DNA from: Escherichia coli
GTDB taxonomy: Bacteria > Pseudomonadota > Gammaproteobacteria > Enterobacterales > Enterobacteriaceae
Assembly (NCBI RefSeq): GCF_024700885.2
Contig: NZ_CP117016.1
Length of the DNA stretch: 64,000 nt
Direction: 5' to 3' (one strand)
In this document: in pieces, positions 22,854 to 38,998 of the stretch
Layout of the letters: every line of letters begins with the position of its first letter
Numbering within the stretch: position 1 is the stretch's first letter
Position numbers and translations under genes: made by a program
The notes under the pieces: model-generated
The model's input: the letters and a program-made list of their open reading frames with translations, nothing else
What the model was told of the DNA's origin: nothing
Database searches by the model: none

Positions 22854-23722
22854 TGTCCATTTTAATTGATAAAAACACCAAGGTTATCTGCCAGGGCTTT
22901 ACCGGTAGCCAGGGGACTTTCCACTCTGAACAAGCCATTGCATACGGCACTAAAATGGTTGGCGGTGTAACCCCAGGTAAAGGCGGCACCACCCACCTCG
23001 GCCTGCCGGTGTTCAACACCGTGCGTGAAGCTGTTGCTGCTACTGGCGCTACCGCTTCTGTTATCTACGTACCAGCACCGTTCTGCAAAGACTCCATTCT
23101 GGAAGCTATCGATGCAGGCATCAAACTGATTATCACCATCACTGAAGGCATCCCGACGCTGGATATGCTGACCGTGAAGGTGAAACTGGATGAAGCGGGC
23201 GTTCGCATGATCGGCCCGAACTGCCCAGGCGTTATCACTCCGGGTGAATGCAAAATCGGTATCCAGCCTGGTCACATTCACAAACCGGGTAAAGTGGGTA
23301 TCGTTTCCCGTTCCGGTACACTGACCTATGAAGCGGTGAAACAGACCACGGATTACGGTTTCGGTCAGTCGACCTGTGTTGGTATCGGCGGCGACCCGAT
23401 CCCTGGCTCTAACTTTATCGACATCCTCGAAATGTTCGAAAAAGATCCGCAGACCGAAGCGATCGTGATGATCGGTGAGATCGGCGGTAGCGCTGAAGAA
23501 GAAGCGGCTGCGTACATCAAAGAGCACGTTACCAAGCCTGTTGTGGGTTACATCGCTGGTGTGACTGCGCCGAAAGGCAAACGTATGGGCCACGCGGGTG
23601 CCATCATTGCTGGTGGGAAAGGGACTGCGGATGAGAAATTCGCTGCTCTGGAAGCCGCAGGCGTGAAAACCGTTCGCAGCCTGGCGGATATCGGTGAAGC
23701 ACTGAAAACTGTTCTGAAATAA
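22853..23722 (+). CDS. sucD: Succinyl-CoA synthetase alpha subunit, 289 aa
   Basis: Start overlaps sucC stop (ATAATG); CoA-binding [24 protein letters not shown]. Confidence 0.97.
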
Positions 23723-23822
23723 ATATCTGTAATAAGAAATAGCCCTCGCCGCTTCCCTCTACAGGAATGGCGAAGGGTTGTCGGTTTCGACATGGTTGGC
23801 CATCGTATGATGGCCTTTTTTA
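23723..23822 (+). ncRNA. sdhX: Probable SdhX (RybD) 3'-UTR-derived sRNA of the sdh-suc transcript
   Basis: About 100 nt between the sucD stop and a strong intrinsic terminator; in E. coli this 3' UTR is known to give rise to SdhX; exact 5' end not determinable from sequence. Confidence 0.5.
23798..23822 (+). terminator. Rho-independent terminator of the sdh-suc operon
   Basis: Hairpin GGCCATCGTATGATGGCC followed by TTTTTT. Confidence 0.85.
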
Positions 23823-24387
23823 TGCCTTAAATGTTAACCACGGTCGAAATCTGACCGCTGGCTTGACTGCATGACCACAGCCACTGTGGATTGCCGCAAC
23901 CGACCGCAAGCCACGAATAAGAACGACGGCGAATTTCGAATCGTTACCTGATGCACTGGCTTCCCAGCGTTTGACCGTAGCGTTAAGTAAATCAACAAAA
24001 GCGATGTTCACCGCTTATCGTCAAGTCGTGCCATTTGTCAGCCAGGATCGGGTCTTTACCCCGGATATTGCAGCATCGCAAAAATTCTTAGAGGGATATG
24101 CTATAAATCAAAAATAAAATCTTTGTTGATTGTTTATCATAATATCCACAGATATGATAAATGATATCAATTTAATAATTTTCACTTAATGTGATTCCGG
24201 ATAATTCGAAAGGCGCTGTGCTTTTCGGATTATTATTATCTGATTAAGATATTTGTCACGCCAGGCTTACTGGGTTATAAATGTCAATCATGATTCTTAT
24301 AAATTATTTATTGCTGCTTTGGTTACCATTACTTCGTAATAAGTAATGTATTTTTGATGGTTTAAACTATTTTTAAGGGACGGCATT

Positions 24388-25293
24388 ATGCGAGGAAAAA
24401 TACCTAAAACGGAGCTGCTGGTGACTTTTGAGGTCGTCGCACGTCATGAAAGTTATACCAGAGCGGCAGAGGAGTTAGCGTTAACCCAAAGTGCAGTATT
24501 CAGACAAGTGAGTGCGCTGGAGGAATTTTTACATACTCCGTTATTTTCACACTCTAAAAAACGTATTTTTCTTAATGATGCAGGGAAGTATTACCTGGGG
24601 ATAGTAAAAGAAACATTAAATAAGCTGGAACGCGATACCAATACCATTATGACCTGGCAGCCTACGGTTCAGGTTATTGAACTTGCCGTGAATCCTACGT
24701 TTAGTACCCACTGGTTAATCCCAAATTTACATGAATTCACAAAGTTACATCCCGATATTATTGTTAATATTCATTCTTTAGCTAATAACGGCGATTTTCT
24801 TAATCGGGAGTACGATGCTGTCATTATGCGCGAAAATTTTTGCGCGCCCTGGGCGGAAGTAGAATATCTCTTTGAAGAGGAGATTTTGCCGGTATGCAGC
24901 GGCAGTTTGCTTGCAATGTCCGATCAAAAACTGTCAGTGGCAGAACTGCTTACAGAGTTACCACTTCTGCATCAAAGTACCCGTATTACTGGCTGGGAAG
25001 AGTGGTTTGCCTTATCTGGCGTTAGCAGTCCGCTGGTCAACAACGGACCACGTTTCGATTTGCTTTCAATGCTGATTGCCGCCGTGCGCTCGAATCTCGG
25101 CGTGGCGCTGTTACCTCGTTTCGCTATTCAACATGATTTGGATAGTGGCGATATGGTGATCCCCTGTGATGTGCCTATTCGTACCGGTAATCGTTTTATT
25201 ATGACGTGGCAGGAAGAGAAGTCTGACTCACCGCACTTGCAGCAATTTCGTGAATGGTTGCTGGCGAAATCGGTCGTACCGCAGGAGATGTAA
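24388..25293 (+). CDS. LysR-family transcriptional regulator, 301 aa
   Basis: N-terminal HTH (ELALTQSAVFRQVSALEEFL) and LysR substrate-binding-like C-terminal domain; convergent with the distal end of the methylaspartate operon. Confidence 0.85.
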   Translation: MRGKIPKTELLVTFEVVARHESYTRAAEELALTQSAVFRQVSALEEFLHTPLFSHSKKRIFLNDAGKYYLGIVKETLNKLERDTNTIMTWQPTVQVIELAVNPTFSTHWLIPNLHEFTKLHPDIIVNIHSLANNGDFLNREYDAVIMRENFCAPWAEVEYLFEEEILPVCSGSLLAMSDQKLSVAELLTELPLLHQSTRITGWEEWFALSGVSSPLVNNGPRFDLLSMLIAAVRSNLGVALLPRFAIQHDLDSGDMVIPCDVPIRTGNRFIMTWQEEKSDSPHLQQFREWLLAKSVVPQEM

Positions 25294-25326
25294 AACCTGC
25301 GCCTGGCGGGATGCCAGACGCAGTTA

Positions 25327-25929
25327 TTACCAGTCGATACCCGGCTGGGCCTGAATGCCGTTATCAAAAGCATGTTTGACGGGGCGGATTTCGCTTACCG
25401 TATCCGCCATTTTTAATATCTGACTGTGGCAACCGCGTCCGGTGACAATGACACTTTGTTGTGCCGGGCGGTTTTGCAGAGAAGCGATCACTTCTTCGGT
25501 GTCCAGATAATGGTAAGCCAGCATATAGGTCAGCTCATCAAGCACCACTAAGTCGTAACGCTTGTCAGCCAGCATCCGTTTGCTTTCCGACCAGACCTCT
25601 TTCGCCGCGTCGATATCCGCTTGCCGGTTCTGTGTCTCCCAGGTAAAACCGGTTCCCATAATATGAAACTCAACCCCCAGCGGCTGGAGAAGGTTGTATT
25701 CACCGTTGTCCCATTGCCCCTTGATGTACTGCGCAACCCCCACCGTTTTGCCATGACCCACCGCGCGCGTCACAGTACCAAACGCGGCAGTGGATTTCCC
25801 TTTGCCGTTGCCGGTGAAAACAATCAAGATCCCTTTTTTCTCTATCGCCGCCGCGACGCGCGTATCGACCTGTTCCTTCAATTTCTGCTGGCGCTGCACA
25901 TGCCGTTCAGTTGAAATTCGCGCTTCCAT
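25327..25929 (-). CDS. ATP:cob(I)alamin adenosyltransferase (CobA/BtuR family paralog), 200 aa
   Basis: Strong resemblance to E. coli BtuR as I recall it (IIVFTGNGKGKTTAAFG P-loop, VVLDELTY, VITGRG, SELRPVKHAF motifs); last gene of the minus-strand operon. Confidence 0.85.
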   Translation of the reverse strand: MEARISTERHVQRQQKLKEQVDTRVAAAIEKKGILIVFTGNGKGKSTAAFGTVTRAVGHGKTVGVAQYIKGQWDNGEYNLLQPLGVEFHIMGTGFTWETQNRQADIDAAKEVWSESKRMLADKRYDLVVLDELTYMLAYHYLDTEEVIASLQNRPAQQSVIVTGRGCHSQILKMADTVSEIRPVKHAFDNGIQAQPGIDW

Positions 25930-25938
25930 TCATTTTCC

Positions 25939-27591
25939 TTAATGTCCCGCAGGGCAACTGGCGCAGCGGTGTTGCTGCTCAAACTGACTAAAGAAATTAT
26001 TGCCTTTATCATCTACCAGGATGAATGCGGGTAAATTTTCCACTTCCATCATCCACACCGCTTCCATACCCAGCTCCGGGTATTCCAGGCAACGCAGACT
26101 TTTGACATATTCTTGCGCCAGTAACGCAGCTGCACCGCCAATACTTCCCAGATTGAAGCCGCCATGTTTGTGACAGGCATCGGTGACCTGCTGGCTGCGG
26201 TTACCTTTCGATAACATCACCAGACTGCCGCCAGCCGCCTGGAAGGTATCGACATAACCGTCCATTCGTCCACCCGTGGTTGGACCCAGTGAACCGCAGG
26301 CCATGTTCTCCGGTGTTTTCGCCGGGCCAGCGTAATAGACAATATGATGCTTCAGGTAATCCGGCATCGATTCGCCGCTATCCAGCCGCGCTTTTATTTT
26401 GGCATGGGCGATATCGCGCGCCACTACGATGGGACCACTTAACGACACGCGGGTGCCTACCGGTAATCTGGCGAGATCCTGCATCACGTCACGCAACGGA
26501 CGGTTTAGATCCAGCTGTACATGTTGCGCGTGATTTTCTTCCCGCAGTGAGGCTGGAATATATTGCCCCGGATTGTGTTCGAGTTTTTCCAGCCAGATAC
26601 CGTGTTTGTTAATTTTTGCTTTGATATTGCGATCGGCAGAACAGGAGAGCGCCATAGCTATCGGGCAAGAGCCACCGTGACGCGGCAGACGAATGACGCG
26701 AATATCATGAGCGAAATATTTACCCCCAAATTGCGCACCAATACCAAATTGCTGACTGGCGTTGAGCAACGCTTTTTCCAACTCAATATCACGGAATGCT
26801 TGTCCCTGCTCGTTTCCGCTGGTGGGCAAATTGTCGTAATATTTCGTTGAGGCCAGCTTGGCAACTTTTAAGGTTTGATCGGCTGAAAGCCCTCCGACGA
26901 CAAAGGCGATGTGATAAGGCGGGCAGGCAGCGGTGCCCAGCGATTTCATTTTTTCGATTAAAAATGCGGTCAGTTTTTCTGGTTGCAATAGGGATTTTGT
27001 TTCCTGATAAAGCGCGGCTTTATTGGCAGAGCCCCCCCCTTTATTAATACAGAGAAAATGGTACTCATCACCAGCGACGGCGCTGATATCAATCTGCGCC
27101 GGTAGATTGGTTTGCGTATTGACTTCGGTATACATATCCAGTGGCGCATTTTGTGAAAAGCGCAGATTATTTTCCTGAAAAGTGGTGTAAATGCCTTTGC
27201 TTAAGGCTTCGGCGTCGTTACCTCCGGTCCATATCTGTTGCCCTTTACTGGCAACAATAGTTGCGGTGCCGGTATCCTGACAGTTGGGTAATACCCCTTT
27301 TGCTGAGACTTCAGCATTACGTAATAACTGCAACGCAACGTATTTATCATTACTGCTGGCCTGCGGATCGTTAAGAATGCTGGCGACCTGTTGCAAATGA
27401 GCGGAACGTAAGAAAAAAGAGGCTTCATAAAATGCCTGCCGGGCAAGCAGCGTTAATGCTTCAGGAGCGATTTTTATCACTTCTTCGCCGTCTAATTCCG
27501 TTACTGTAATATGTTGATCGCTAATTAATGTATATTCTGTACCGTCTTTATTTTGTAGATACGGTTCTTGCCAGATAAATGGTTTGGACAT
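25939..27591 (-). CDS. fumD: Class I (FumA/FumB-like) fumarate hydratase family protein, probable mesaconase, 550 aa
   Basis: FumA-sized single polypeptide of the Fe-S hydro-lyase family; location in the glutamate mutase/methylaspartase cluster corresponds to the mesaconase/fumarase FumD described for E. coli O157:H7 (from memory). Confidence 0.8.
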
Positions 27592-27698
27592 ATTTCACTT
27601 TTCACCTTAAACGTTAGTGTTACTTAATTGCCGTCTAACTTCATGATCCGGCTTATAAAAATGCGTAGTCATTGGCTTCTGATTGCTTAAGATCCCCC

Positions 27699-28979
27699 TC
27701 AGGGCAGAGCAACGTTCGATTCATTGGGTTTTAATGCTTTACCCCGACAACCCTCGCCGAAATGTTCGCCTTCCCACCGACTCACCAACGCAGCGCCCAT
27801 TGCGTTGCTCATGACGTTTGTCGCGGAACGCCCCATATCAAGGAACGGATCAACGCCCATCAGCAAGATCAGCCCCGCTTCCGGAATATTGAACTGGTTG
27901 AGCGTGGCGGCGATAACCACCATTGAGGCGCGTGGTACGCCAGCCATTCCTTTCGAGGTCAACATCAGGATCAACAGCATGGTGATTTGCTCACCGATGG
28001 ATAAATGGATATTGCAGGCCTGGGCGATGAAAACTGTGGCGAAGGAGCAGTAGGCCATTGATCCAACGAGATTAAATGAGTAGCCAATGGGTAAGACAAA
28101 GCTGGCAATTTTGGGGGAAACGCCAAATTGCTCCAGTTTTTCAAGCGTTCCCGGAAAAGCAGCTTCAGAACTGGATGTGGTAAATGCCAGCAGGGCGGGT
28201 TCCGAAAGGGCACGGGTCAGGCGTCTGATGCAGGGGCCGACATAAACGATGGCCAGACCGATAAGCAGCACCCAAAGTAACAACATGGTGAAATAAAATT
28301 CACCCATAAAGATCCCGGCGCTCACCATAACTGCCAGTCCTCGTTCAGCAATCAATGCTGAAATAGCGGCGAATACGGTCAGGGGAGCGAAGAGCATGAC
28401 GTAGCCAGTGAGCTTTAACATGGCATGTGCCAGCGAATCTAAGGCGTGAACGATGGCGCTGCCTTTCTCACCAATCGCCGTCAGGCTACAGCCGAGGAAA
28501 ATTGAGAACACCACGATTTGCAAAATTTCATTGTGCGCCATGGCATCGACAATGCTGGTGGGGAAAGCATGCGAAATAAATACTTTTAGCGTAAAGGGTT
28601 CTGACGCGACCACTCCGGTGGTTTCGGCACCGTGTGCAACAAAATTAATTCCTGTGCCTGGCATGAAGAAATTTACCGTTATCAAGCCTAAGGCAATTGA
28701 CAGCAATGAGGCGCAAATAAATAAAAAGAGTGTTTTAGAAAAAATACGACCAAGGGCTTTGGCATCGCCCATTTTAGCAATACCTACCACCAGGGTAGAG
28801 ACCACTAACGGAGCGATAATCATTTTTATCAGTCGTAAGAAAATCGTCGTGAATATCGATATTTCTTGCGCATAGAGTTTTGCTGTTTCCGGTGAAGCAG
28901 TGTTATTGATCACTACGCCGATAATCATTCCAAGTACCAGCGCCAAAAGAATCATCGTGGTTAAACTTATTTTCTTCAT
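27699..28979 (-). CDS. Dicarboxylate/amino acid:cation symporter (DAACS, GltP/DctA-like) family transporter, about 426 aa
   Basis: Multi-pass hydrophobic ORF with the family-typical N-terminus; start placed at MKKISL (ATG at 28979), preceded by GGAGGA 7 nt upstream; the ORF-track start at 29000 is a GTG. Confidence 0.8.
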   Translation of the reverse strand: MKKISLTTMILLALVLGMIIGVVINNTASPETAKLYAQEISIFTTIFLRLIKMIIAPLVVSTLVVGIAKMGDAKALGRIFSKTLFLFICASLLSIALGLITVNFFMPGTGINFVAHGAETTGVVASEPFTLKVFISHAFPTSIVDAMAHNEILQIVVFSIFLGCSLTAIGEKGSAIVHALDSLAHAMLKLTGYVMLFAPLTVFAAISALIAERGLAVMVSAGIFMGEFYFTMLLLWVLLIGLAIVYVGPCIRRLTRALSEPALLAFTTSSSEAAFPGTLEKLEQFGVSPKIASFVLPIGYSFNLVGSMAYCSFATVFIAQACNIHLSIGEQITMLLILMLTSKGMAGVPRASMVVIAATLNQFNIPEAGLILLMGVDPFLDMGRSATNVMSNAMGAALVSRWEGEHFGEGCRGKALKPNESNVALP

Positions 28980-29139
28980 TTTTTCCTCCATCAGGTGCAC
29001 GGCGATAAATCAGAATCAGGAGAAGTAGATGCCCGAATAAAAATTCAGGCATCTACCTGCTATTACAACCTTACAAATAGCTGAAGTGTTGAACTGCAAT
29101 AAGTGACGGGATGTCAGTTGGCTAAAAGTGTTCGGATTT

Positions 29140-29457
29140 TTACAAATCGAAACTCATATTTAATAAAGGTGCATGTTGCTGTGCACCATAGACATCATTG
29201 TCACCTACATTCCCGGAGATAATATCTCGTGGCATGACGATTTTTACTGCGTTAGAAGGATCAAACCAGACAATACGATGAATAAAGTCAGGTTCAACAT
29301 GATATAAGCGCGCGATCAGTTCTGGGGTTAATTGCCCTGATGATTTAACTCGCTCATAGTTTTCTTTGGTTTTAAATAAAATATCTAAAACCAGTTCGTA
29401 AGGTCCGGCATTTTTCGAACGAATGACTTGCGCCAGTGAGACAATTGACTGTTTCAT
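29140..29457 (-). CDS. DUF4387-like small protein, 105 aa
   Basis: Small soluble ORF whose start overlaps the stop of the upstream DUF1446-like gene by 4 nt; family assignment from recollection of the DUF1446/DUF4387 pair. Confidence 0.6.
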   Translation of the reverse strand: MKQSIVSLAQVIRSKNAGPYELVLDILFKTKENYERVKSSGQLTPELIARLYHVEPDFIHRIVWFDPSNAVKIVMPRDIISGNVGDNDVYGAQQHAPLLNMSFDL

Positions 29458-30824
29458 GCCTGAACTCCTTCTGGCGTCACCTGTTCAATATGGAAATCAA
29501 AACGCAGAGCGTCGTTGGCTTCAATCAGGTGATATATGGAAAATTCGTATACCGGCCCGCCCTGAATATCAGAAGGGGAGAACGGGAATGCCAGGTTGCC
29601 TGCGGTAGCGATGCGGTTTTCATAGCCGTAGTGCAGCATAGTAGAGCGCACCAGCGAGCAAACGCTATTGGCAATATCCTGGGTCGGTGCAACTACATCA
29701 AGGACAATCCCCAGCTCATGCCCGGCAGTTTGCATCGGTTCATGGTCGCCCATCACCCCGTTTTTGCCGTACAGGTGGAAATTGATGCGAATGCTGTCAT
29801 CGTCGAGCGACAGGTTACGCGAAACGCTGGTTTTGACTTCATCGATGATTTTATCGATCCCGGCGATCATGATCGGGTCGCGCGTTCCGGCGATGGTCAG
29901 ACAGCGGAAGCCCACCCGTCGCGCACCTTCCAGTTTCAGGGCATACGGCGTTTCTTCATGCTTAGAACCGCTGACGTACACTTCGCCGTCATTGACCGCT
30001 TTAAATGTGCAGCCTTTCAGGTTCAACACGCCGCCAGGTCCTGGCAGGAAGTAGGGATCGGATTTCTCATACAGTGTGTGTGCAGCTGCTGACGTTTCGG
30101 TAAATTTACGCTTCGGATTAAATGTCTTCAGCGTAAAGCCGTTGTCATCAATGATGCCCATCGCACAGTCAGAGCCTGAGCCGGGCGTTGCGGCGATTGC
30201 CGCGCATTCAAGGATTTTCCCACAATGCAGCGCCAGACCTTCATCAAAGCCTTGCATGATCGGTAGCGCAGCAAAGCAGGCCGGGTCGTAAGCGCGCCCG
30301 CCCAGCACCACTTGCGCGCCTTCTTTCAGCGCCTGCTGGAAGGGTTCGATGCCCATTTGCGCGACGATATACGTACTTTCGTCAATCGCGTCGTGGGTTA
30401 ACGGCGGGACAAAATCCAGCGCCGTGATTTTGCCGTTATCCAGCGCCTGGTGGACGATGGCTTTGTCAACGTCTGCCGGGATCAGCGCCATCGAGAACGA
30501 GAGGTGCTCTTCCCGGGCAATCTCATGAATTATTTCTCGGCACCACTCCAGGTGTGGAGCGGCACCAGAACCGCCGGCCGTTCCGATCACCACCGGTATA
30601 TTATTTTGCACGCCTGCGGTGATCATATAGCGCAGATCGCGCTTGACCCCTGCGCGATCGGTAAACGGTTTGCCCGCCCCGAGGTAGTGGGGGCCAGGAT
30701 CGGAAGAGCCAGCATCAACGGCGATCAGATCGGGCGATTCTGCCATCGCTTTGCGGAAGCTCTCCTCCGGGAATCCATACCCGAGGATTGCCGTAGGCGA
30801 TAAGACTTTAAAAGAACGAGCCAT
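29454..30824 (-). CDS. AtuA-like (DUF1446) family protein, 456 aa
   Basis: About 450-aa soluble ORF resembling acyclic-terpene-utilisation AtuA-like proteins (my recollection); 3 nt downstream of the methylaspartase gene in the same operon. Confidence 0.6.
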   Translation of the reverse strand: MARSFKVLSPTAILGYGFPEESFRKAMAESPDLIAVDAGSSDPGPHYLGAGKPFTDRAGVKRDLRYMITAGVQNNIPVVIGTAGGSGAAPHLEWCREIIHEIAREEHLSFSMALIPADVDKAIVHQALDNGKITALDFVPPLTHDAIDESTYIVAQMGIEPFQQALKEGAQVVLGGRAYDPACFAALPIMQGFDEGLALHCGKILECAAIAATPGSGSDCAMGIIDDNGFTLKTFNPKRKFTETSAAAHTLYEKSDPYFLPGPGGVLNLKGCTFKAVNDGEVYVSGSKHEETPYALKLEGARRVGFRCLTIAGTRDPIMIAGIDKIIDEVKTSVSRNLSLDDDSIRINFHLYGKNGVMGDHEPMQTAGHELGIVLDVVAPTQDIANSVCSLVRSTMLHYGYENRIATAGNLAFPFSPSDIQGGPVYEFSIYHLIEANDALRFDFHIEQVTPEGVQA

Positions 30825-30827
30825 TTG

Positions 30828-32069
30828 TTAATCCTTAGCCTGCAACAGCGCGATAGTACGATTCATTTCGTTGAAGACGATATCGAGGCCTTCGTCAAAG
30901 CCCATCCCTGGCTTTACCAGCATACGCATAGGGCGAGCGGCAAGGGCGATGTGGACACAGGTGCGGGCACTGACATCAGTTTCATTGCAGGTGCCGCCCT
31001 GGTACGCTTCCATGCTGTGGCTATTGCAGTAAAGAACCGCATCGACGATGTTGTGAATACTGCCCAGATCCGGGGTTTTGATTTGCACCATGTGACAACT
31101 GGCGGCATCAGTAAAATCAACAATATCCTGGTAGGTGTTACACCATTCATCGGCCACAATTTTCACGCCGGAACCGAGGCGCGTCAGCTCTTTGGTAATC
31201 GCGGTCAGCAGGCGAATTTGATCGGGCTTGTTACCGGCATCGACCGGACCTTCAATGTAGAGCGGCAGGCCTTGCGCTTCTTTTTCCAGGCTGGCGATGT
31301 ATTGCGCACAGCGAAGCGGATCCATATCGAAGATCAGACCGATAGTGCCGTATACATCGATGTGCAGGGTAGGGTGGTAGCGTGCGCTGGTGCGCTTGCT
31401 CAGAATACGATCCGACAGCCAGCGGACATATTCGCGCAGTTTTTCACCTTTAAAGCCCAGTTTCTCTTCGACGTTATTAATCAGTGCATGGGGCAGCACG
31501 TCGATGCCCTTAAGGATCATCTTATCGACGGCGATATATCGATCGTCGCCGCTCTGACCAAATAATGGAATGGATTCCGCCACGCGTGGCAACTGCCATT
31601 CATCACAGACCACTTCAGTTTTCAGACGGCCGGTTGCCAGCGCGGTAGCATCAAGCAGCGCCTGTGATAATCCGTAGCGCACGGCGGTATGCAGCAAGTT
31701 GCCGTCAATACGCAATTTGTCGAAGAAACGGGCATTCGGCAGGAAAGCATCTACATCGCGGCCTACCAGTAATGGCTTGATATGGTCGTTGAGGAACGGA
31801 ATAAAGTGCTCTGCGAGGAACAGTGGATCGCGACCACCTGCCCCGGAATACTGTACGGCAGCACAGTCACCTACGGCGACCGCGCCGTTTTCCAGAATCA
31901 ACTGTACCGATACGCACTCCCCGGCCTGACGTACGGCGTTAAACCCCTGTGTTACTGGCTCCCCGGTATAAAAAAAGCCGTCGTGACCCGCTCCGTTTTT
32001 TATCGCCTGCTGGTCATCGAAATAGAATGAGGAGTAGCCAGCGGTGAACAGGGCCTGTTTTATTTTCAT
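30828..32069 (-). CDS. 3-methylaspartate ammonia-lyase (methylaspartase, enolase superfamily), 413 aa
   Basis: N-terminus MKIKQALFTAGYSSFYFDDQQAIKNGAGHDGFFYTGEPVT and length are typical of methylaspartase; start overlaps the glmE stop. Confidence 0.9.
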   Translation of the reverse strand: MKIKQALFTAGYSSFYFDDQQAIKNGAGHDGFFYTGEPVTQGFNAVRQAGECVSVQLILENGAVAVGDCAAVQYSGAGGRDPLFLAEHFIPFLNDHIKPLLVGRDVDAFLPNARFFDKLRIDGNLLHTAVRYGLSQALLDATALATGRLKTEVVCDEWQLPRVAESIPLFGQSGDDRYIAVDKMILKGIDVLPHALINNVEEKLGFKGEKLREYVRWLSDRILSKRTSARYHPTLHIDVYGTIGLIFDMDPLRCAQYIASLEKEAQGLPLYIEGPVDAGNKPDQIRLLTAITKELTRLGSGVKIVADEWCNTYQDIVDFTDAASCHMVQIKTPDLGSIHNIVDAVLYCNSHSMEAYQGGTCNETDVSARTCVHIALAARPMRMLVKPGMGFDEGLDIVFNEMNRTIALLQAKD

Positions 32070-33514
32070 TATGGTCTTCCTATTAATTTACTGTGGGATA
32101 CAGCATTGATGTCATCTACAACCATCTGGAATGTCGGTTGGCGTCCTTCAAAGCGTGCGCGTTCCGCAACGTAATCGTGGTGGAGGTCGAGAATATCTTT
32201 TGGCAATGGAACGGCTCCGGCTTCCAGTACGCGTATCGCGCCGGTGTTGTCACGGACCGGAAGAATTTTGCCCGCGTTGCAGGCGGCTGGCGCAAACGGC
32301 ACATCCAGTACGCCCGCTTCAAATGCCAGCACCGTACCGCGCGCAATATCACCATTACCCAGTTCGAACACTTTATTCAGTACCGCGCGAACCTCGCTCT
32401 TAATCAGTTCAATTTCCAGTTCAACCGCAGGGCAAGGCGGGAATTTCTGCTCGTTGACCATGTTGAGCATCTGGCGGGAGGCTTTCAGCCCCTGAATGTT
32501 GGCAGCGGCAGTCGGGATGCCCCAGGCTTCGTGCGGACTTTTGGTGATGACTTTGGTGGCACCAGACATCCCCGCGACGGCTGCACCCCAGGAGATAATG
32601 GCGAACGCTTTCGATTCGTCTTCCGGAAAGCCGCCCATCCACTGGTGAAACACGGTACTTAATTCATAGTCGGTATAGCCATAGCTCTGAAAGTATTCGT
32701 GTGCAAGTTCACGCAGAGACTGGATCGCCGCGACATCCTGCGTCAGGCTGCCGACCTGTCCATAACCAACGGTGATAGATTTCACACCCTGTTCCAGCGC
32801 CAGTAATCCTTCGATTATCGCGATAGAGTGCGAGATAAACGGCGGGATCAGCGTACCCGTTAGTGGGCCAAACGGTTCGCGGTTGATGCGGATCCCGTGT
32901 TCTTCATACATCCCCATTAAACGATCGCAGTACTGCCAGTCGCGGATCGATTTTTCCAGCGTTACGCGCTTGGCATACGGAATATTGTAGGAAATGCCGC
33001 CGCCTTCATAACTGGTAAAGCCGCTGGCCATCGAGATTTCAGCCAGCAGACGCGCATCTGGCGTGCCGTGGCGGATCTGTAGCGGTTTTTGCAAAGTTTC
33101 GGTGAGGCGACGGCAAGCTGCGACGCCGTGGTTAACTACCGGTAAACCGTTCAGTTTAGAGGTTCCGGCTTCGATGGATTTTTTAATCCCTACAGCCGCT
33201 TCTTCGTACCGATTCAGACGGGTATATGCATCGATGGTGCTCGGCAGCAGATCGCACTCTTCTTGTGGTGTTTTCAGTAGTTCGATGTGTTCGTCCATCA
33301 GCGCCACGCCTGCGCGCGGTTGGCTAAGAGTTTTACCTTCCTTGTCTGCTTTCAGCAGGGCAAGAGAGAAGCGTTTATGCTCAGGAATGGTTTGTTGGTA
33401 TTTAACGCCATCTTCAAAGTTTTCAACATCCTTGCCGGTTTCCCAGGTTTTCAGTACCTGTTGCCGCTCGGTCATGAATTCGTCATGGGTTAATTTCTTA
33501 TTTCGAAGTTCCAT
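32069..33514 (-). CDS. glmE: Glutamate mutase epsilon (catalytic, E) subunit, 481 aa
   Basis: Length and sequence consistent with methylaspartate mutase E chain; sits between glmL and the methylaspartase gene as in clostridial glmS-glmL-glmE clusters. Confidence 0.88.
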   Translation of the reverse strand: MELRNKKLTHDEFMTERQQVLKTWETGKDVENFEDGVKYQQTIPEHKRFSLALLKADKEGKTLSQPRAGVALMDEHIELLKTPQEECDLLPSTIDAYTRLNRYEEAAVGIKKSIEAGTSKLNGLPVVNHGVAACRRLTETLQKPLQIRHGTPDARLLAEISMASGFTSYEGGGISYNIPYAKRVTLEKSIRDWQYCDRLMGMYEEHGIRINREPFGPLTGTLIPPFISHSIAIIEGLLALEQGVKSITVGYGQVGSLTQDVAAIQSLRELAHEYFQSYGYTDYELSTVFHQWMGGFPEDESKAFAIISWGAAVAGMSGATKVITKSPHEAWGIPTAAANIQGLKASRQMLNMVNEQKFPPCPAVELEIELIKSEVRAVLNKVFELGNGDIARGTVLAFEAGVLDVPFAPAACNAGKILPVRDNTGAIRVLEAGAVPLPKDILDLHHDYVAERARFEGRQPTFQMVVDDINAVSHSKLIGRP

Positions 33515-33749
33515 TGATTGCAGCCTTAATTGTTATAGGGTTAAGCATTGAATACTGGTGCGCGCGGCGGCCAGTGGATCGACTCTGGCGACGTTTGCCA
33601 GCAGTGGTAATAGCCCCCGGGAATCGCGGTAATATTCAAATTCGGTCGGTAAGAGAATGCGTTTACCGTCGTCGTTTAACTCGCGGTATTTCAACCAGTG
33701 ATGCATATCGAACTGACTGGCACGCGAGAGCCATCCGCCGGAACCAACG

Positions 33750-33757
33750 ACTTTACG
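33750..33757. repeat. Target-site duplication (left copy) ACTTTACG
   Basis: 8-bp direct repeat immediately flanking the IS26 left inverted repeat. Confidence 0.85.
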
Positions 33758-34577
33758 GGCACTGTTGCAAATAGTCGGTGGTGATAAACTTATCATCCCC
33801 TTTTGCTGATGGAGCTGCACATGAACCCATTCAAAGGCCGGCATTTTCAGCGTGACATCATTCTGTGGGCCGTACGCTGGTACTGCAAATACGGCATCAG
33901 TTACCGTGAGCTGCAGGAGATGCTGGCTGAACGCGGAGTGAATGTCGATCACTCCACGATTTACCGCTGGGTTCAGCGTTATGCGCCTGAAATGGAAAAA
34001 CGGCTGCGCTGGTACTGGCGTAACCCTTCCGATCTTTGCCCGTGGCACATGGATGAAACCTACGTGAAGGTCAATGGCCGCTGGGCGTATCTGTACCGGG
34101 CCGTCGACAGCCGGGGCCGCACTGTCGATTTTTATCTCTCCTCCCGTCGTAACAGCAAAGCTGCATACCGGTTTCTGGGTAAAATCCTCAACAACGTGAA
34201 GAAGTGGCAGATCCCGCGATTCATCAACACGGATAAAGCGCCCGCCTATGGTCGCGCGCTTGCTCTGCTCAAACGCGAAGGCCGGTGCCCGTCTGACGTT
34301 GAACACCGACAGATTAAGTACCGGAACAACGTGATTGAATGCGATCATGGCAAACTGAAACGGATAATCGGCGCCACGCTGGGATTTAAATCCATGAAGA
34401 CGGCTTACGCCACCATCAAAGGTATTGAGGTGATGCGTGCACTACGCAAAGGCCAGGCCTCAGCATTTTATTATGGTGATCCCCTGGGCGAAATGCGCCT
34501 GGTAAGCAGAGTTTTTGAAATGTAAGGCCTTTGAATAAGACAAAAGGCTGCCTCATCGCTAACTTTGCAACAGTGCC
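33758..34577 (+). mobile_element. IS26 (IS6 family), complete 820-bp copy
   Basis: 14-bp terminal inverted repeats GGCACTGTTGCAAA (33758-33771) and TTTGCAACAGTGCC (34564-34577); internal transposase matches IS26 Tnp as I recall; flanked by 8-bp direct repeats. Confidence 0.93.
33821..34525 (+). CDS. tnpA: IS26 transposase Tnp26 (DDE), 234 aa
   Basis: MNPFKGRHFQRDIILWAVRWYCKYGISYRELQEMLAERGVNVDHSTIYRWVQRYAPEMEK is the canonical IS26 transposase N-terminus (from memory); start placed at the ATG 18 nt inside the ORF-track start. Confidence 0.93.
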   Translation: MNPFKGRHFQRDIILWAVRWYCKYGISYRELQEMLAERGVNVDHSTIYRWVQRYAPEMEKRLRWYWRNPSDLCPWHMDETYVKVNGRWAYLYRAVDSRGRTVDFYLSSRRNSKAAYRFLGKILNNVKKWQIPRFINTDKAPAYGRALALLKREGRCPSDVEHRQIKYRNNVIECDHGKLKRIIGATLGFKSMKTAYATIKGIEVMRALRKGQASAFYYGDPLGEMRLVSRVFEM

Positions 34578-34585
34578 ACTTTACG
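34578..34585. repeat. Target-site duplication (right copy) ACTTTACG
   Basis: 8-bp direct repeat immediately flanking the IS26 right inverted repeat. Confidence 0.85.
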
Positions 34586-35748
34586 CACGGTTGTCAGGTC
34601 ACGTCCCATCTGTAAATCGACATTGCCGACGCAGGTGCAGACCTCTTTTTTGGTGCCCGCATGTCTTTCGGTGGCATAACCCACACACAGTCCGGCCAGG
34701 ACGGTATCGAAATATTTTTCTTCTGCATTCGCGGGTAAGTAGTCGGGATGAGCGACTAGATGGCGGAGGTAATGATAAAAAGCGTCCAGCTGTGCGGGTT
34801 GCTGAGCAAAATTCACATTGACTAACTCTTTCGCACTTTCACCAACCACCATTGCCGAGACGCGCATTCCCAGATCGCCTTCCACCGTCCGTTTCACGAA
34901 GGGTTCCGGTACGCCGTGTAAAACGGTGTCGGGCGAGAGCGTGTTGGCACAGGCGGAATAGACATCGGTGGTTGCGCCACCCATGTCGATCAGCATGAAC
35001 TCTTTCCAGCTGTGATCGACGTTACTGATTGCCTTAACCAGTTCAAAGACCGTCCATGGTGTCGGCATTGGTTCTTCGCCTGTTTTATCAACAATGACAT
35101 CCAACCCTTTCCCTTTAACGATGCGTTTAAGGAATATGTCGCAGATAGCCTGGCGTGCAGCTAAAGGGTTCGGATGGTCAAGATCGGGCAGAACGTTGTC
35201 GACGATGGTCAGGTCTTTATGCCCGAGGATCTCCTGCACCTCGTCCTGAATATCCCGGTTTCCGGCATAAATAATGGCGCAGTCGAGTTTGGATTCTGCC
35301 AACACACGGGCGTTATTCAGTCCGTAGCTTTCTTCTCCGCCATCGGTGCCGCCGGTGAACAAGAGAATATCGGGCTGCGTTTCTTCCAGTGCCTGGATAT
35401 CACGGCGGTTCAGCTTGTAGGCGTAATATTGCGCAATTTTAGCACCCGCAGAGTGAGCGGTTACTTTCGCGGTTTCCAGGGTGATAGAAGGCACCAATCC
35501 CATTGCGGCAACCGCCAGCCCACCTTTGGCAGAGGAGGAATACTTCAATGCAACCTCACCACTGTTTAACAGGGGGAGGGCATTATCTACGTTTAACACC
35601 TGGTCCAGGCTGGAGAAAAACCCCTTCGCCAGATGATGGGTGGTGGTTGGGGTCAGAACGTGGTTAACCAACGTTAACGCGTCCCCCTCCCGGGTGAAGA
35701 GGGCTGCTTTGGTCCACGTCGAACCAATATCGACAGAGACGATTTGCA

Positions 35749-36198
35749 TCAGATTGCCTCTTCAAGAATGCGAGTATCAACGTCATGACGTTGGTTGATA
35801 TCGTGGGCCATCAGCTGACAAACATCTTCTAAGTCATGACTTGGGGAAAAGACGCGATCAAATCCCATCTCTTTGAACTTGGTTTCCACGTCAGCGAAGT
35901 CATGTTTTCCGACCACCAGGTTACCGCCCACATAGAGCAGGATGTTACCCAGCCCACGCTCGATGCAGCGTTCGCGCATGCCCAGACAATCGATATCGCC
36001 ATGCCCATAGATAGAGGAGACGACAATCGCGTCAGCACCAGTTTCAATGGCAGCATCAATATATTCGTCCTGGCTGACCATTACGCCCAGATTAATAACT
36101 CTGAAGTCATGGTTGCTAAAAACGCGGTCCAGAACTTTATTGCCTACTGCATGGCAGTCCGCGCCAATAACGCCAATCACAAGTGTTGCTTTCTTCAT
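35749..36198 (-). CDS. glmS: Glutamate mutase sigma (B12-binding, S) subunit, about 149 aa
   Basis: [24 protein letters not shown] contains the DxHxxG cobalamin-binding signature; start at ATG 36198 preceded by AGGA; stop overlaps the glmL start (ATGA). Confidence 0.88.
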
Positions 36199-36745
36199 GG
36201 GTAATCCTTTGTAAGACAGAGAGTAAAATAAGTTACACACGTCGTATTTATGGCCGCTCATAACGGCACAGGTTTAATATCACAGGAGTGTCTTTATCTG
36301 ACCGTAATGTTGCAATTGATCTATTTTCAAAATGTCTTTCGGGAAATGATTGTTTAAAGTGTGTTTTCAAATTCTCATTTTAATTCAGTGTGTTATGTCA
36401 ACTAATGTCATGAATGTTAAATTTTTAAAATTAACTTGATTTGATGTATTGAGATAATTGTGATCAACTTCTAATTTGCATTTTTGTGACGTGGCTTTAG
36501 CCATGAGTAAATACATTTCATAAAAGTTAAGTCGAATTTCACTGCAATTCATCTCTGCTTAATGTAAAAATAATGTTGAAAATAACAAATAATTAATGAT
36601 TCATGCGAATTATGACCTTTGTTAGCTCTTTTGATTTTTCGTAAAAAAGAAAAGTACATGAAGGTGCTACCAGTACGAGTAACGTTAATCAAAAGTTTTA
36701 TTACGTCTGGCAATAACGCAGGCCATTTTTCGCGACAGGAGGGAT

Positions 36746-37168
36746 TTAATCAGTATAATCCTCATACAATAGGTCAGGATTTACTGAACCGTTAACGGGG
36801 ATTTGGTGTTGAAATTTAGAAATGGCGGAGTCAATTAATGAAGACAATATCGGAAAAATGACAGTGTCAGAATTAATTTCAATTAATCCTTCTCGTTGTT
36901 GACCAAAAAAGATATTTATCTTGATTTCATTTGTACTACGGCAATCAATATGCAGTAATTTTTGATCGCTGAGATTTTCTGTTTCATAAATGTTTTTGGC
37001 GATAGTCGGATGTATTGATGCCAGACATCTGCTCAGATAAGCCAGATCCTTTAGGGAACACCCCGCTGAGTAGAGGATGTCAGAGAATTTTTGTGTGTCA
37101 ACTGTTGTCTCTGAAGCGTATGTTGCATTGACAGGAAGGGTGTTGAAAGAGATTTGAGATGGGATCAT
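36746..37168 (-). CDS. Hypothetical protein, 140 aa, no recognisable family
   Basis: ORF in a markedly AT-rich block; co-directional with and 80 bp downstream of the 314-aa orphan ORF; coding status unverified. Confidence 0.45.
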   Translation of the reverse strand: MIPSQISFNTLPVNATYASETTVDTQKFSDILYSAGCSLKDLAYLSRCLASIHPTIAKNIYETENLSDQKLLHIDCRSTNEIKINIFFGQQREGLIEINSDTVIFPILSSLIDSAISKFQHQIPVNGSVNPDLLYEDYTD

Positions 37169-37248
37169 TATTTAAATCTTTCCGTGAGTAATAAAAATTA
37201 ATCCCCGGGCATTGTTTAGCAATATTTGCCACAGGGAATATATAAAAA

Positions 37249-38193
37249 TTAAAGTATTTGATTGGCATCGGTTAACTGATCAATAACCAGTGCCAGATTG
37301 GTAAACATTTTGAAAAAGCGATACTGGCTCGGAATATCTCTTTCAAAGACGAAACATTCAATGTCATTGTTTGAAAAATAAAGGACTAGTGTTGCTGATT
37401 CGTCAGGAAAAATATGGAAATATATCTGGTTACCAGAAGGAGGATAGTCCAGATGAAGGGTATCTTTGCCCGTCACATACCTGTTGTGGTCGTGGATGCT
37501 GCGCTCACACTTCATCAGAGGTGTCATGATACTCATGTATTCATCTGATGTTAATATATTAAAATCACCATCCATTTTAAAGAAACGATAAAGTAACAGT
37601 ACATCCTCTTGCGTAACCGGTTCGTTTGTTTTTAGAGGGAAATAAGTGGGAACCAGAAGATGAGGTTCTAATCTATTTTGTTGAGCGCTATAACTAAATT
37701 TGAACATAAATTCCGGATCGCTCATTAATTGAGCGACATAATTATGCCTGGCTTCAAAAATTTTAACTTTTATCAGGTTAAATAAGTCTGTTTCGTTATC
37801 CTGTATTAAAAGACATTGGCCATAGCAGCCAGGCTTTTTTTCATTATAAGCAGAAACGGTTATTCTGTCAGGAGTGTCAACGTTATATCCAAAAGCCAGA
37901 TAGTGACCTTCCTCATCGAGATTTGTTTCCAGGTTATTTAAATTCATCACATGAAGTGTTTGCAATGCTGATTCAATGAGCTGTTGACTCTCTGAGGTAA
38001 ATGTTTCGCGCTGCGTTGTATAAAGTGTATCGATTCCAACGACTATCCGATGTGGGTCAAGGATGGCGGCAATCATCTTTATTACCTGCACAGTCATGGG
38101 TGATGTCATTGATTCTTTATCTGTTTTTAGAGGATCATTAGATGGCCAACCTGAGAAGCGATTGACAGCAGAACTGATATTATCAGGACTCAT
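37249..38193 (-). CDS. Hypothetical protein, 314 aa, no recognisable family
   Basis: Longest ORF in an AT-rich region with no competing frame; no signal peptide or transmembrane segment evident; no motif I can assign. Confidence 0.55.
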   Translation of the reverse strand: MSPDNISSAVNRFSGWPSNDPLKTDKESMTSPMTVQVIKMIAAILDPHRIVVGIDTLYTTQRETFTSESQQLIESALQTLHVMNLNNLETNLDEEGHYLAFGYNVDTPDRITVSAYNEKKPGCYGQCLLIQDNETDLFNLIKVKIFEARHNYVAQLMSDPEFMFKFSYSAQQNRLEPHLLVPTYFPLKTNEPVTQEDVLLLYRFFKMDGDFNILTSDEYMSIMTPLMKCERSIHDHNRYVTGKDTLHLDYPPSGNQIYFHIFPDESATLVLYFSNNDIECFVFERDIPSQYRFFKMFTNLALVIDQLTDANQIL

Positions 38194-38647
38194 AGCAGCA
38201 ACCTCATTGTAATCAAGCGAGGCGCTGAGCGTACTCGGCTATAGAAAAACTAACTTGCAAAAATCGCTCATTTTTCATTTATCAGGCGAAAGTGGTCTCT
38301 GTTCACTCAGAAACAATCACTCCCGCTAAGTCATACCTGTATCATCGATACATTTAAGTGATTATTACTAATGAAACAATAACATAACGGGCTTACGGCC
38401 GGTGCTCATAAACGCAACAATCAATTAACTTTGATAAAAATATGTTATGTAAAATAGCAACAAATTGGCTAATCTAATCAATTGGTATTATAAAAAGTGG
38501 ATAAGGCGGTTCTGTTAAATAAAACACTGGTTTTTTATCTATACCTTTTCATTGTAATAATTGTGTTGCATAAATATTTCACAATAAATTAACAATAAAA
38601 TTACCAATGATCTATGGTTTATACATAATTAACATATTTGGTTGGTT

Positions 38648-38661
38648 TTGATATAAATCAA
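38648..38661. promoter_or_regulatory. FNR-type site TTGATATAAATCAA in the cydA upstream region
   Basis: Perfect TTGAT-N4-ATCAA palindrome about 340 bp upstream of cydA; cydAB is known to be FNR/ArcA regulated. Confidence 0.55.
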
Positions 38662-38998
38662 TTTTTAATTCTTGAAAAAAATCTGCAAAACACGATAAAT
38701 TGTCGTAGATCAAATTGGTGAGATCGTGACAATTTCGCTATAAATTGATCACTGTCGAAAAATGCAAATTTGCTCAATAAAAACCTGTTTATTGTAAGGA
38801 TTTTGCGGCGTAATATAATTACGGGATCAATTTGGTTTATTCATTAACATATTTGTAACTTTTTTATCATTGTCTTTTCCTCTTTTGATGAAATGGCAAC
38901 GATAGAGGCGAGCAAATAATTTTGTATTGGGGCATGCGTGTGACCCTTTCTAACGGGGTTCACTCTCGGAGTCTTCATGCGATGAGCAAGGAGTCATG

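Follow-up and report, generated by a model that had tools for sequence, protein, structure and literature searches.

A predicted second CobA/BtuR-type adenosyltransferase gene, cobO, at the end of a methylaspartate-pathway gene cluster of Escherichia coli

Introduction

The closest described relatives of the gene analyzed here, cobO, are the housekeeping adenosyltransferases Salmonella CobA and E. coli BtuR (PDB 1G5R, 1G5T, 1G64, and 4HUT), which belong to the same fold family, align to its product without gaps at 67 to 68% identity, and have in common with it the P-loop, F91, W93, E128, R161, and the C-terminal KHAFD. They differ in that cobO has 4 extra N-terminal residues and carries the changes T42S, P70D, R/K74Y, V86I, and Arg165 to Ser, Ala, or Thr, and also in their setting, since cobO sits after fumD with a convergent LysR gene, whereas BtuR is encoded in a yciK-btuR operon that is usually followed by rluB. 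As for the FldA-coupled housekeeping CobA, its Arg9 is common to cobO, whereas its Arg165 is a Ser in cobO.

[quoted passage not shown] The operon logic is the same for cobO, but PduO and EutT have folds unrelated to CobA and work inside bacterial microcompartments, whereas cobO is of the CobA type and would act outside any microcompartment. Pseudomonas denitrificans CobO is a member of the same family and has the same PGAP product name, cob(I)yrinic acid a,c-diamide adenosyltransferase; it functions in de novo corrin synthesis with CobR as the electron source (PMC7242693), whereas the island cobO is linked to a catabolic operon. In the MMAB/ATR system, with MeaB and methylmalonyl-CoA mutase, an adenosyltransferase is dedicated to loading or repairing one AdoCbl mutase (PMC11841063), yet this enzyme, unlike the CobA-type cobO, has a PduO-type fold, and it transfers its cofactor directly.

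The window examined in this work is a stretch of 64,000 nucleotides of E. coli DNA (assembly GCF_024700885.2, contig NZ_CP117016.1). Both the gene and its position are already known, as it is drawn as 'CobA, cob(I)alamin adenosyltransferase' in a published cluster figure (Kronen & Berg 2015, PMC4682846, Fig. 5), and PGAP names the identical sequence cobO, cob(I)yrinic acid a,c-diamide adenosyltransferase, in all records inspected; the identification is therefore a confirmation and not a discovery. Our literature search found no paper testing this cobO. What is new here is the quantification of synteny and selection, the set of substitutions that define the clade, among them the loss of Arg165, and the conservation of the coupling junction.

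Results

Gene cluster and predicted pathway

In the window, a piece of E. coli chromosome, sdhA, sdhB, sucA, sucB, sucC, and sucD occupy the plus strand up to position 23722 and are followed by a cluster that is absent from K-12, which instead has mngR, mngA, and mngB between sucD and cydA. The cluster comprises the following features:

24388 to 25293, plus strand: LysR-family regulator gene, convergent with cobO and found at this position in all island-type loci
25327 to 25929, minus strand: cobO, the btuR paralog of the island, predicted to encode a CobA/BtuR-type ATP:co(I)rrinoid adenosyltransferase of 200 aa (profile matches and alignments)
25939 to 27591, minus strand: fumD, class I fumarase/mesaconase of 550 aa (NCBIfam NF011921, 1280 bits)
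27699 to 28979, minus strand: GltP/DctA-like dicarboxylate/amino acid:cation symporter (family matches and PGAP)
29140 to 30824, minus strand: AtuA-family and DUF4387 gene pair, matching the citramalate lyase CmlA/CmlB (PDB 9ERQ/9EVF)
29140 to 29457, minus strand: DUF4387 gene of this pair, cmlB (9ERQ/9EVF chain B, E=5.2e-57)
29454 to 30824, minus strand: AtuA-family gene of this pair, cmlA (9ERQ/9EVF chain A, E=1.2e-292)
30828 to 32069, minus strand: mal, methylaspartate ammonia-lyase (TIGR01502, 543.7 bits)
32069 to 33514, minus strand: glmE, glutamate (methylaspartate) mutase E subunit (PF06368, E=2.8e-213)
33533 to 35749, minus strand: glmL, MutL-type accessory protein, split by IS26 into two ORF fragments that match the MutL profile
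35749 to 36198, minus strand: glmS, B12-binding S subunit of glutamate mutase (PF02310 and PGAP)

An earlier note, made from the letters of this DNA, had described the adenosyltransferase gene as neighboring an AdoCbl-dependent mutase, and this was borne out by the presence of glmS, glmL, and glmE, together with mal, upstream on the same strand. The FumD enzyme has been characterized biochemically (Kronen & Berg 2015, PMC4682846). Chains A and B of 9ERQ/9EVF were deposited as 'Citramalate lyase subunit A (cmlA)/B (cmlB)', and Raoultella Cml was used as a citramalate lyase in a preprint (bioRxiv 10.64898/2026.01.16.699985). Because the AtuA-family/DUF4387 pair corresponds to the citramalate lyase CmlAB according to 9ERQ/9EVF, the cluster appears to encode a full route to pyruvate and acetate, in which glutamate would be converted to methylaspartate, mesaconate, and (S)-citramalate, the last of which would yield the two end products. 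The cluster additionally encodes functions in uptake and cofactor activation, as well as a chaperone and a regulator. No microcompartment shell proteins were present among the cluster genes identified in profile searches.

The strain from which the window derives carries an insertion in glmL:

33758 to 34577, plus strand: IS26, 820 bp, encoding an IS6-family transposase, with the 8-bp target duplication ACTTTACG at 33750 to 33757 and 34578 to 34585

The insertion shortens GlmL after about 390 residues, and the two glmL fragments match positions 1 to 383 and 378 to 446 of the MutL profile. An intact glmL of 1389 bp was found in strain 1190, which differs from the window by 5 substitutions in 28.6 kb, and the glmL::IS26 junction was absent from the 5426 complete E. 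coli genomes searched. IS26 may be polar on the downstream genes, cobO included, and the pathway served by cobO is probably impaired in this strain.

Family membership and conserved motifs

The cobO open reading frame starts with an ATG at 25929 on the minus strand and encodes 200 aa. Its product matched PF02572 (CobA_CobO_BtuR) at 216.2 bits (cutoff, 25.7; E=4.7e-64) over the whole profile (positions 1 to 172 of 172), TIGR00708, the NCBIfam cobA equivalog, at 246.6 bits (cutoff, 167.75), and NF004637 (NCBIfam) at 295.6 bits (cutoff, 185), all three above cutoff, in agreement with the earlier assignment of the gene as BtuR-like. The match to PF12557 (Pfam Co_AT_N, the N-terminal helix) reached 20.6 bits against a cutoff of 21.4, and this helix carries a 4-residue extension.

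Pairwise alignment, which the earlier note had proposed as a check on its view of cobO as a close paralog of the housekeeping gene, gave 132 of 196 identical residues (67%) and 83% positives with E. coli K-12 BtuR, without gaps (E=3e-105), and 134 of 196 (68%) with Salmonella CobA; for comparison, K-12 BtuR and Salmonella CobA are identical at 175 of 196 residues. Residues 6 to 200 of the cobO product aligned without gaps to residues 2 to 196 of 1G5R (E=2.5e-88), and 4HUT was also aligned end to end. Two motifs were located within the gene:

25789 to 25812, minus strand: P-loop GNGKGKST, residues 40 to 47 (36 to 43 in Salmonella CobA), read from the sequence
25639 to 25647, minus strand: F95-T96-W97, corresponding by alignment to F91/W93 of Salmonella CobA

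The P-loop, which fits the G-x-G-K-G-K-[ST]-[ST] pattern for MgATP binding, did not vary among the 116 island-type cluster representatives. In the wider family (124 representatives), its residues G36, G38, K39, G40, K41, and T43 (Salmonella numbering) were conserved, and Ser at position 42, the seventh residue of the loop, was the second commonest state (52/124). Both the P-loop and the C-terminal RPVKHAFD...GID are common to cobO and K-12 BtuR, as the earlier note had judged by eye, and KHAFD also occurs in Salmonella CobA. F91 and W93, island F95 and W97, were invariant in 84/84 Enterobacterales sequences and were found in 102/124 and 96/124 family representatives, respectively; to go by the title of Moore et al. 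2012 (cited in PMC5282855), these residues generate four-coordinate cob(II)alamin.

Altogether, 80 residues, the P-loop, R51, F91, W93, E128, R161, K181, and H182 among them, were invariant in the 84 Enterobacterales homologues. The last seven of those named (Salmonella numbering) were also conserved in the 124 wider-family representatives and are present in cobO, and the Arg9 equivalent, R13 in the island protein, was invariant in the 84 Enterobacterales sequences. The core residues are intact: neither loss of the P-loop or of catalytic residues nor low similarity to CobA-type enzymes, the findings that the earlier note had named as contrary to its proposal, was observed. Family membership and motifs confirmed the prediction that cobO is an intact second CobA/BtuR-type adenosyltransferase gene.

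Junction with fumD and 3' end of the operon

The two boundaries of cobO are marked by the following features:

25930 to 25941, minus strand: fumD stop codon TAA and 9-nt spacer up to the cobO ATG, with a Shine-Dalgarno-like AAGGA overlapping the stop
25291 to 25323, minus strand: intrinsic-terminator-like hairpin, an 11-bp stem followed by GUUUUA, between the convergent cobO and LysR genes

The fumD stop codon lies at 25939 to 25941, and the 9 nt that separate it from the cobO start (GGAAAATGA) agree exactly with the spacing given in the earlier note. On the minus strand, the junction reads ...GGA CAT TAA GGAAAATGA ATG GAA..., in which TAAGGA forms a Shine-Dalgarno-like site across the fumD stop. 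The arrangement TAAGGAG-N6-ATG, with its spacing of 9 nt, was kept in 14/14 island-type loci. Translation of cobO is probably coupled to that of fumD, and from the arrangement of the two genes we infer that they would be cotranscribed.

Directly after the cobO stop codon, an 11-bp stem (8 G-C pairs) is followed by GUUUUA, at 25323 to 25297 on the minus strand. This hairpin was the top terminator-like site in positions 24000 to 37500, a 76-nt stretch containing it gave a folding z score of -3.5 against shuffles, and an inverted repeat just past the cobO stop was seen, as judged by eye, in most of the 14 island-type loci. Since the hairpin and U-tract come right after the stop codon, the position of cobO as the last gene of the operon, likewise claimed in the earlier note, is well supported by the sequence.

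Within the cluster, gaps of 107 and 160 nt lie upstream of fumD and of the gltP-like gene, respectively. Our promoter scan detected no sigma-70-like sites on the minus strand in the gaps upstream of the gltP-like gene, fumD, and glmS; promoter-like matches were overall fewer than in shuffled sequence, and the scan is uninformative on internal promoters. No cobalamin riboswitch or other Rfam family was found in positions 23500 to 39200 at E<=1.

Distribution, synteny, and selection

A scan that took one genome for each GTDB species gave 80 loci, the flanks of which were classified by tblastn, and the identity of these loci to cobO proved sharply bimodal. All 13 loci with 80 to 86% identity encode a 200-aa protein directly after fumD in a glm-mal cluster with the LysR gene convergent, and these 13 other Enterobacteriaceae species, together with E. 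coli, make up the 14 species of the 14 island-type loci. The sources as listed were nine Citrobacter genomes, a Raoultella MAG, Lelliottia, two Buttiauxella genomes, and Klebsiella michiganensis. The gene order was glmL-glmE-mal-cmlA-cmlB-gltP-fumD-cobO, with sucD nearby in most, and both glmE and glmL were present in every island-type locus whose fetched flank extended far enough upstream. The other 67 scanned loci were all <=71% identical to cobO, and 66 of them stood in the yciK-btuR housekeeping context, with rluB next in most. Nine genomes of this one-genome-per-species scan held both gene copies.

The exception was Morganella morganii, in which a 196-aa CobA follows gltP-fumD beside cobT, cobS, and cbiP, and no glm or mal genes were found within the 10 kb fetched on each side. 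This fumD-linked CobA appeared as the sister of the island clade in a midpoint-rooted NJ tree, a placement that we rejected when its support came to 15% with outgroups and 100 bootstraps.

A protein database search added island-type cobO from E. coli, Salmonella enterica, several Enterobacter species, Citrobacter koseri, C. amalonaticus, C. farmeri, and C. freundii. The encoded protein is exactly 200 aa long in 116 of the best 120 cluster representatives and in 14/14 island-type loci. Among complete E. coli genomes, cobO alone, fumD plus cobO, and full-length glmE were each found in 1121/5426. A btuR-like match was obtained in 5422 E. coli genomes, at a total of 6546 places over 5425 records; from these totals, island-bearing E. 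coli genomes apparently all keep btuR and hold two copies each, and the three island-bearing records among those listed had two btuR-like places each. The earlier suggestion that cobO may be redundant with the core btuR is thus plausible, as carriers apparently hold both.

In a phylogenetic tree, the island-type proteins formed one clade (100/100 bootstraps), whose branch point falls within the BtuR radiation of the Enterobacterales or close to its base, and island and housekeeping Enterobacterales sequences together were monophyletic against the outgroups (81/100 bootstraps). By this topology, cobO is an old paralog that arose within the Enterobacterales, neither a recent duplicate nor an import from a distant phylum. 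Identity ranged from 62 to 73% between the clades and from 80 to 100% within the island clade. The nearest representative beyond the Enterobacterales set (P0121; 58% identity) lies on a 3.4-kb contig whose context is uninformative.

Pairwise dN/dS within the island clade had a median of 0.051 and ranged from 0.011 to 0.094, with dS saturated between genera. Between E. coli and Citrobacter, dN was about 0.09 to 0.10 for the island gene and 0.063 to 0.074 for btuR of the same genomes. Thus, cobO is under strong constraint, and its rate of evolution exceeds that of the housekeeping paralog only slightly.

Clade-specific substitutions and the loss of Arg165

We compared 15 island with 68 housekeeping sequences and examined 116 further island-type representatives. 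Nine alignment columns had nonoverlapping residue sets in the two groups. Two of these lie in the 4-residue N-terminal extension (MEAR...) of the island clade, and the other discriminating changes, from housekeeping to island, were R28K, P70D, R/K74Y, V86I, A/G112S, L140T, and Arg165 to Ser, Ala, or Thr. S42, D70, Y74, and I86 were invariant in 116/116 further representatives. In the window, the last of the changes maps as follows:

25423 to 25425, minus strand: Ser169, the position of Arg165 in Salmonella CobA by alignment

Position 165 was Arg in 68/68 housekeeping BtuR sequences and Ser, Ala, or Thr in 15/15 island sequences; in the 116 further island-type representatives, it was Ser, Ala, Thr, Asn, Val, Ile, or Lys and never Arg (0/116). 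It was also variable among the 124 representatives of the wider family, and therefore the fixed Arg of enterobacterial housekeeping BtuR looks lineage specific. In Salmonella CobA, Arg9 and Arg165 are reportedly needed for docking of flavodoxin (FldA) and dispensable for catalysis, and the Arg165 lost from the island clade is what we take to be this FldA docking residue. If Arg165 does have this role, the island enzyme may depend less on FldA, which we offer as a minor hypothesis. The idea that the island clade is globally less basic, and would for that reason dock more weakly to the acidic flavodoxin, was rejected, as net charge and pI fully overlap those of housekeeping BtuR.

Discussion

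We consider it likely that cobO, the terminal gene of a methylaspartate-pathway cluster made up of glmS, glmL, glmE, mal, cmlA, cmlB, the gltP-like gene, fumD, and cobO itself, encodes a catalytically competent adenosyltransferase (EC 2.5.1.17) that supplies or regenerates AdoCbl for glutamate mutase, an enzyme that requires this cofactor. Upon induction of the cluster, the cobO product would accept cob(II)/(III)alamin that had been salvaged or released from enzymes; this would be reduced to cob(I)alamin in the active site and receive the adenosyl group from ATP, and the supply of AdoCbl would rise in step with glutamate mutase. The enzyme would also re-adenosylate cofactor lost on inactivation of the mutase, with GlmL as the presumed releasing chaperone. 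From the sequence we infer both the enzymatic activity and the physiological link to glutamate mutase; the strict synteny in 14 species and the purifying selection strengthen the earlier suggestion that the gene may provide local cofactor supply or reactivation.

The rationale given for this suggestion in the earlier note, namely, that E. coli lacks de novo corrin synthesis, does not account for the gene. Citrobacter, Salmonella, and Klebsiella are known to make B12 de novo, and cobO is equally conserved in these genera, so the inability of E. coli to make the corrin ring is not the reason for the gene. In O157:H7, no growth on glutamate occurred with or without three cobalamin forms, attempts to induce the cluster failed, and no methylaspartate ammonia-lyase activity was detected (Kronen & Berg 2015, PMC4682846). 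Given cyanocobalamin, K-12-derived E. coli can grow by means of a heterologous glutamate mutase, and an added adenosyltransferase is not mentioned there (bioRxiv 10.1101/2025.11.12.688011). For such a mutase in these strains, the adenosyltransferases of E. coli itself therefore seem to be enough, and a second copy would be helpful at most and not strictly required.

The substitutions of the island clade raise the question of whether it has changed its partner or substrate preference, toward a donor other than FldA or toward other gut cobamides, such as pseudocobalamin, which we regard as unlikely. Such a change would fit the replacement of Arg165 by Ser, Ala, or Thr in 15 island sequences and its absence from 116 more, the presence of D70 and Y74 in 116/116 each, and the conserved 4-residue extension on the helix that bears Arg9. 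It would also fit the distribution of residues at position 165, which is 100% Arg in Enterobacterales housekeeping BtuR and variable elsewhere, as expected of a lineage-specific docking residue, and the reported dispensability of the docking residues Arg9 and Arg165 for catalysis. In E. coli, moreover, BtuR dosage is of specific importance for the use of pseudocobalamin (PMC11841063). However, Arg9 is kept in the island clade, net charge and pI are equal overall between the clades, and the variability at position 165 in the island clade resembles relaxed constraint rather than a new fixed function. That the enzyme has diverged to the point of being uncoupled from FldA, the loss of Arg165 and a reshaping of the N-terminal helix being the cause, with the corrinoid-facing loop WPNGER changed to WDNGEY and retuned for another reductant or for non-cobalamin gut cobamides, seems to us quite doubtful; were it so, glutamate mutase would have its own cofactor-activation channel, apart from housekeeping salvage.

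The co-location of cobO with glmL and glmS/glmE, kept in 14 species, could also be read as a sign of a mainly noncatalytic or escort partner that delivers cofactor to glutamate mutase or takes part in GlmL-linked reactivation and does not produce AdoCbl in bulk. PduO-type enzymes (the PduO/MMAB fold) are documented to pass AdoCbl directly to a client enzyme, whereas those with the CobA fold are not known to do so. The loading of methylmalonyl-CoA mutase by adenosyltransferases, together with an unexplained BtuR need for MetH-dependent growth that is partly rescued by AdoCbl and hints at noncatalytic roles (both in PMC11841063), lends the notion some substance. Nevertheless, all residues conserved in the wider family, the P-loop included, are kept under strong purifying selection, an argument for continued catalysis; the linkage that is closest and best conserved joins cobO to fumD and not to the mutase genes, and the 10 kb retrieved to each side of the Morganella gltP-fumD-cobA module contain neither glm nor mal genes. 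We judge an escort role very unlikely. Still more improbable, in our estimation, is an evolutionary hitch-hiker, a btuR duplicate captured beside fumD and lacking a selected role. The apparent redundancy with btuR in carrier genomes would be in keeping with it, as would the Morganella fumD-cobA pair, which abuts cobT, cobS, and cbiP and suggests a possible origin of the linkage next to a cobalamin operon, for unrelated reasons. Yet the median dN/dS of 0.051, the 200-aa length in 14/14 loci and 116/120 best cluster representatives, and the conserved coupling signal at the fumD junction all speak for a selected role, frequent pseudogenization of cobO was absent from the genomes examined, and a neutral passenger would not be expected to have lasted from a time preceding the divergence of Escherichia, Citrobacter, Klebsiella, and Buttiauxella.

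As a likely AdoCbl-supplying enzyme, cobO would complete a self-contained catabolic cluster that comprises transport, a B12-dependent mutase with its chaperone, ammonia-lyase, mesaconase, citramalate lyase, cofactor activation, and a regulator, and that is carried by about one fifth of complete E. coli genomes, O157:H7 included, and by many other enterobacteria. If the supply role is true, the CobA type would be a third kind of operon-embedded adenosyltransferase beside PduO and EutT, and if the pathway operates in the gut, the capacity for B12 adenosylation could influence glutamate use by the carriers.

Predicted citramalate lyase genes

The B12-dependent glutamate cluster to which cobO belongs contains a gene pair whose products match the chains of PDB 9ERQ/9EVF; the 2015 paper (PMC4682846) gave it the label "unknown function (DUF1446)".

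29140-30824, minus strand: AtuA-family (456 aa) and DUF4387 (105 aa) genes

The AtuA-family protein matched the chain deposited as citramalate lyase subunit CmlA with an E value of 1.2e-292, and the DUF4387 protein the chain deposited as subunit CmlB with an E value of 5.2e-57. Because of these matches, the pair is a predicted citramalate lyase CmlA/CmlB, which supplies the final step that the pathway had lacked. Both rank with the cluster's most conserved proteins: in the AtuA-family protein, E. coli and the other genera share 91-92% identity.

Transcriptional organization of the cluster

Two larger intergenic gaps and a hairpin lie among the genes of the cluster.

27592-27698: gap of 107 nt, setting fumD-cobO apart from the upstream genes
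28980-29139: gap of 160 nt, setting the gltP-like gene apart from the upstream genes
29059-29046: weak terminator-like hairpin, in the 160-nt gap

Since these features divide it, the cluster may comprise two or three transcription units instead of a single operon. Given that 23500-39200 (the cluster and its surroundings) yielded no match at E<=1 to any Rfam family, the cobalamin riboswitch among them, B12-responsive RNA control of this B12-dependent cluster is not apparent.

Interruption of glmL by IS26

An insertion sequence breaks glmL, the glutamate mutase accessory gene that lies upstream of cobO in this cluster.

33758-34577: IS26 (820 bp, IS6-family transposase), inside glmL
33750-33757 and 34578-34585: 8-bp target duplication, ACTTTACG

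This insertion is absent from the near-identical strain 1190, and the glmL::IS26 junction was not found in any complete E. coli genome of the collection.

Distribution and chromosomal site

The cydA-glmS interval contains two conserved hypothetical genes, encoded on the same strand as the cluster.

36746-37168, minus strand: 140 aa
37249-38193, minus strand: 314 aa

Their products had no match in Pfam or NCBIfam; both genes occur in strain 1190 and O157:H7 (93-96% identical), and tblastn gave no match in other genera, where the flanks searched mostly ended within glmL.

In Morganella morganii, cobA and fumD occur in a module with gltP.

NZ_CP066129.1, 6573-17112: gltP-fumD-cobA module and LysR gene

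The gltP-fumD-cobA module directly adjoins cobT, a histidine-phosphatase gene, cobS and cbiP of the cobalamin operon. Neither glm nor mal genes are present in the 10 kb fetched to each side of it, and its fumD-linked CobA (196 aa) retains Arg165.

The sucD-cydA interval (23723-38995) holds the glutamate cluster here and mngR-mngA-mngB in K-12. In Klebsiella michiganensis, as in most Citrobacter loci, the distance from sucD to the cluster is ~3-4 kb or less. For these reasons, the glutamate cluster appears to be an old, alternative occupant of the sucD-cydA locus (a cassette) and not a recent island specific to E. coli.
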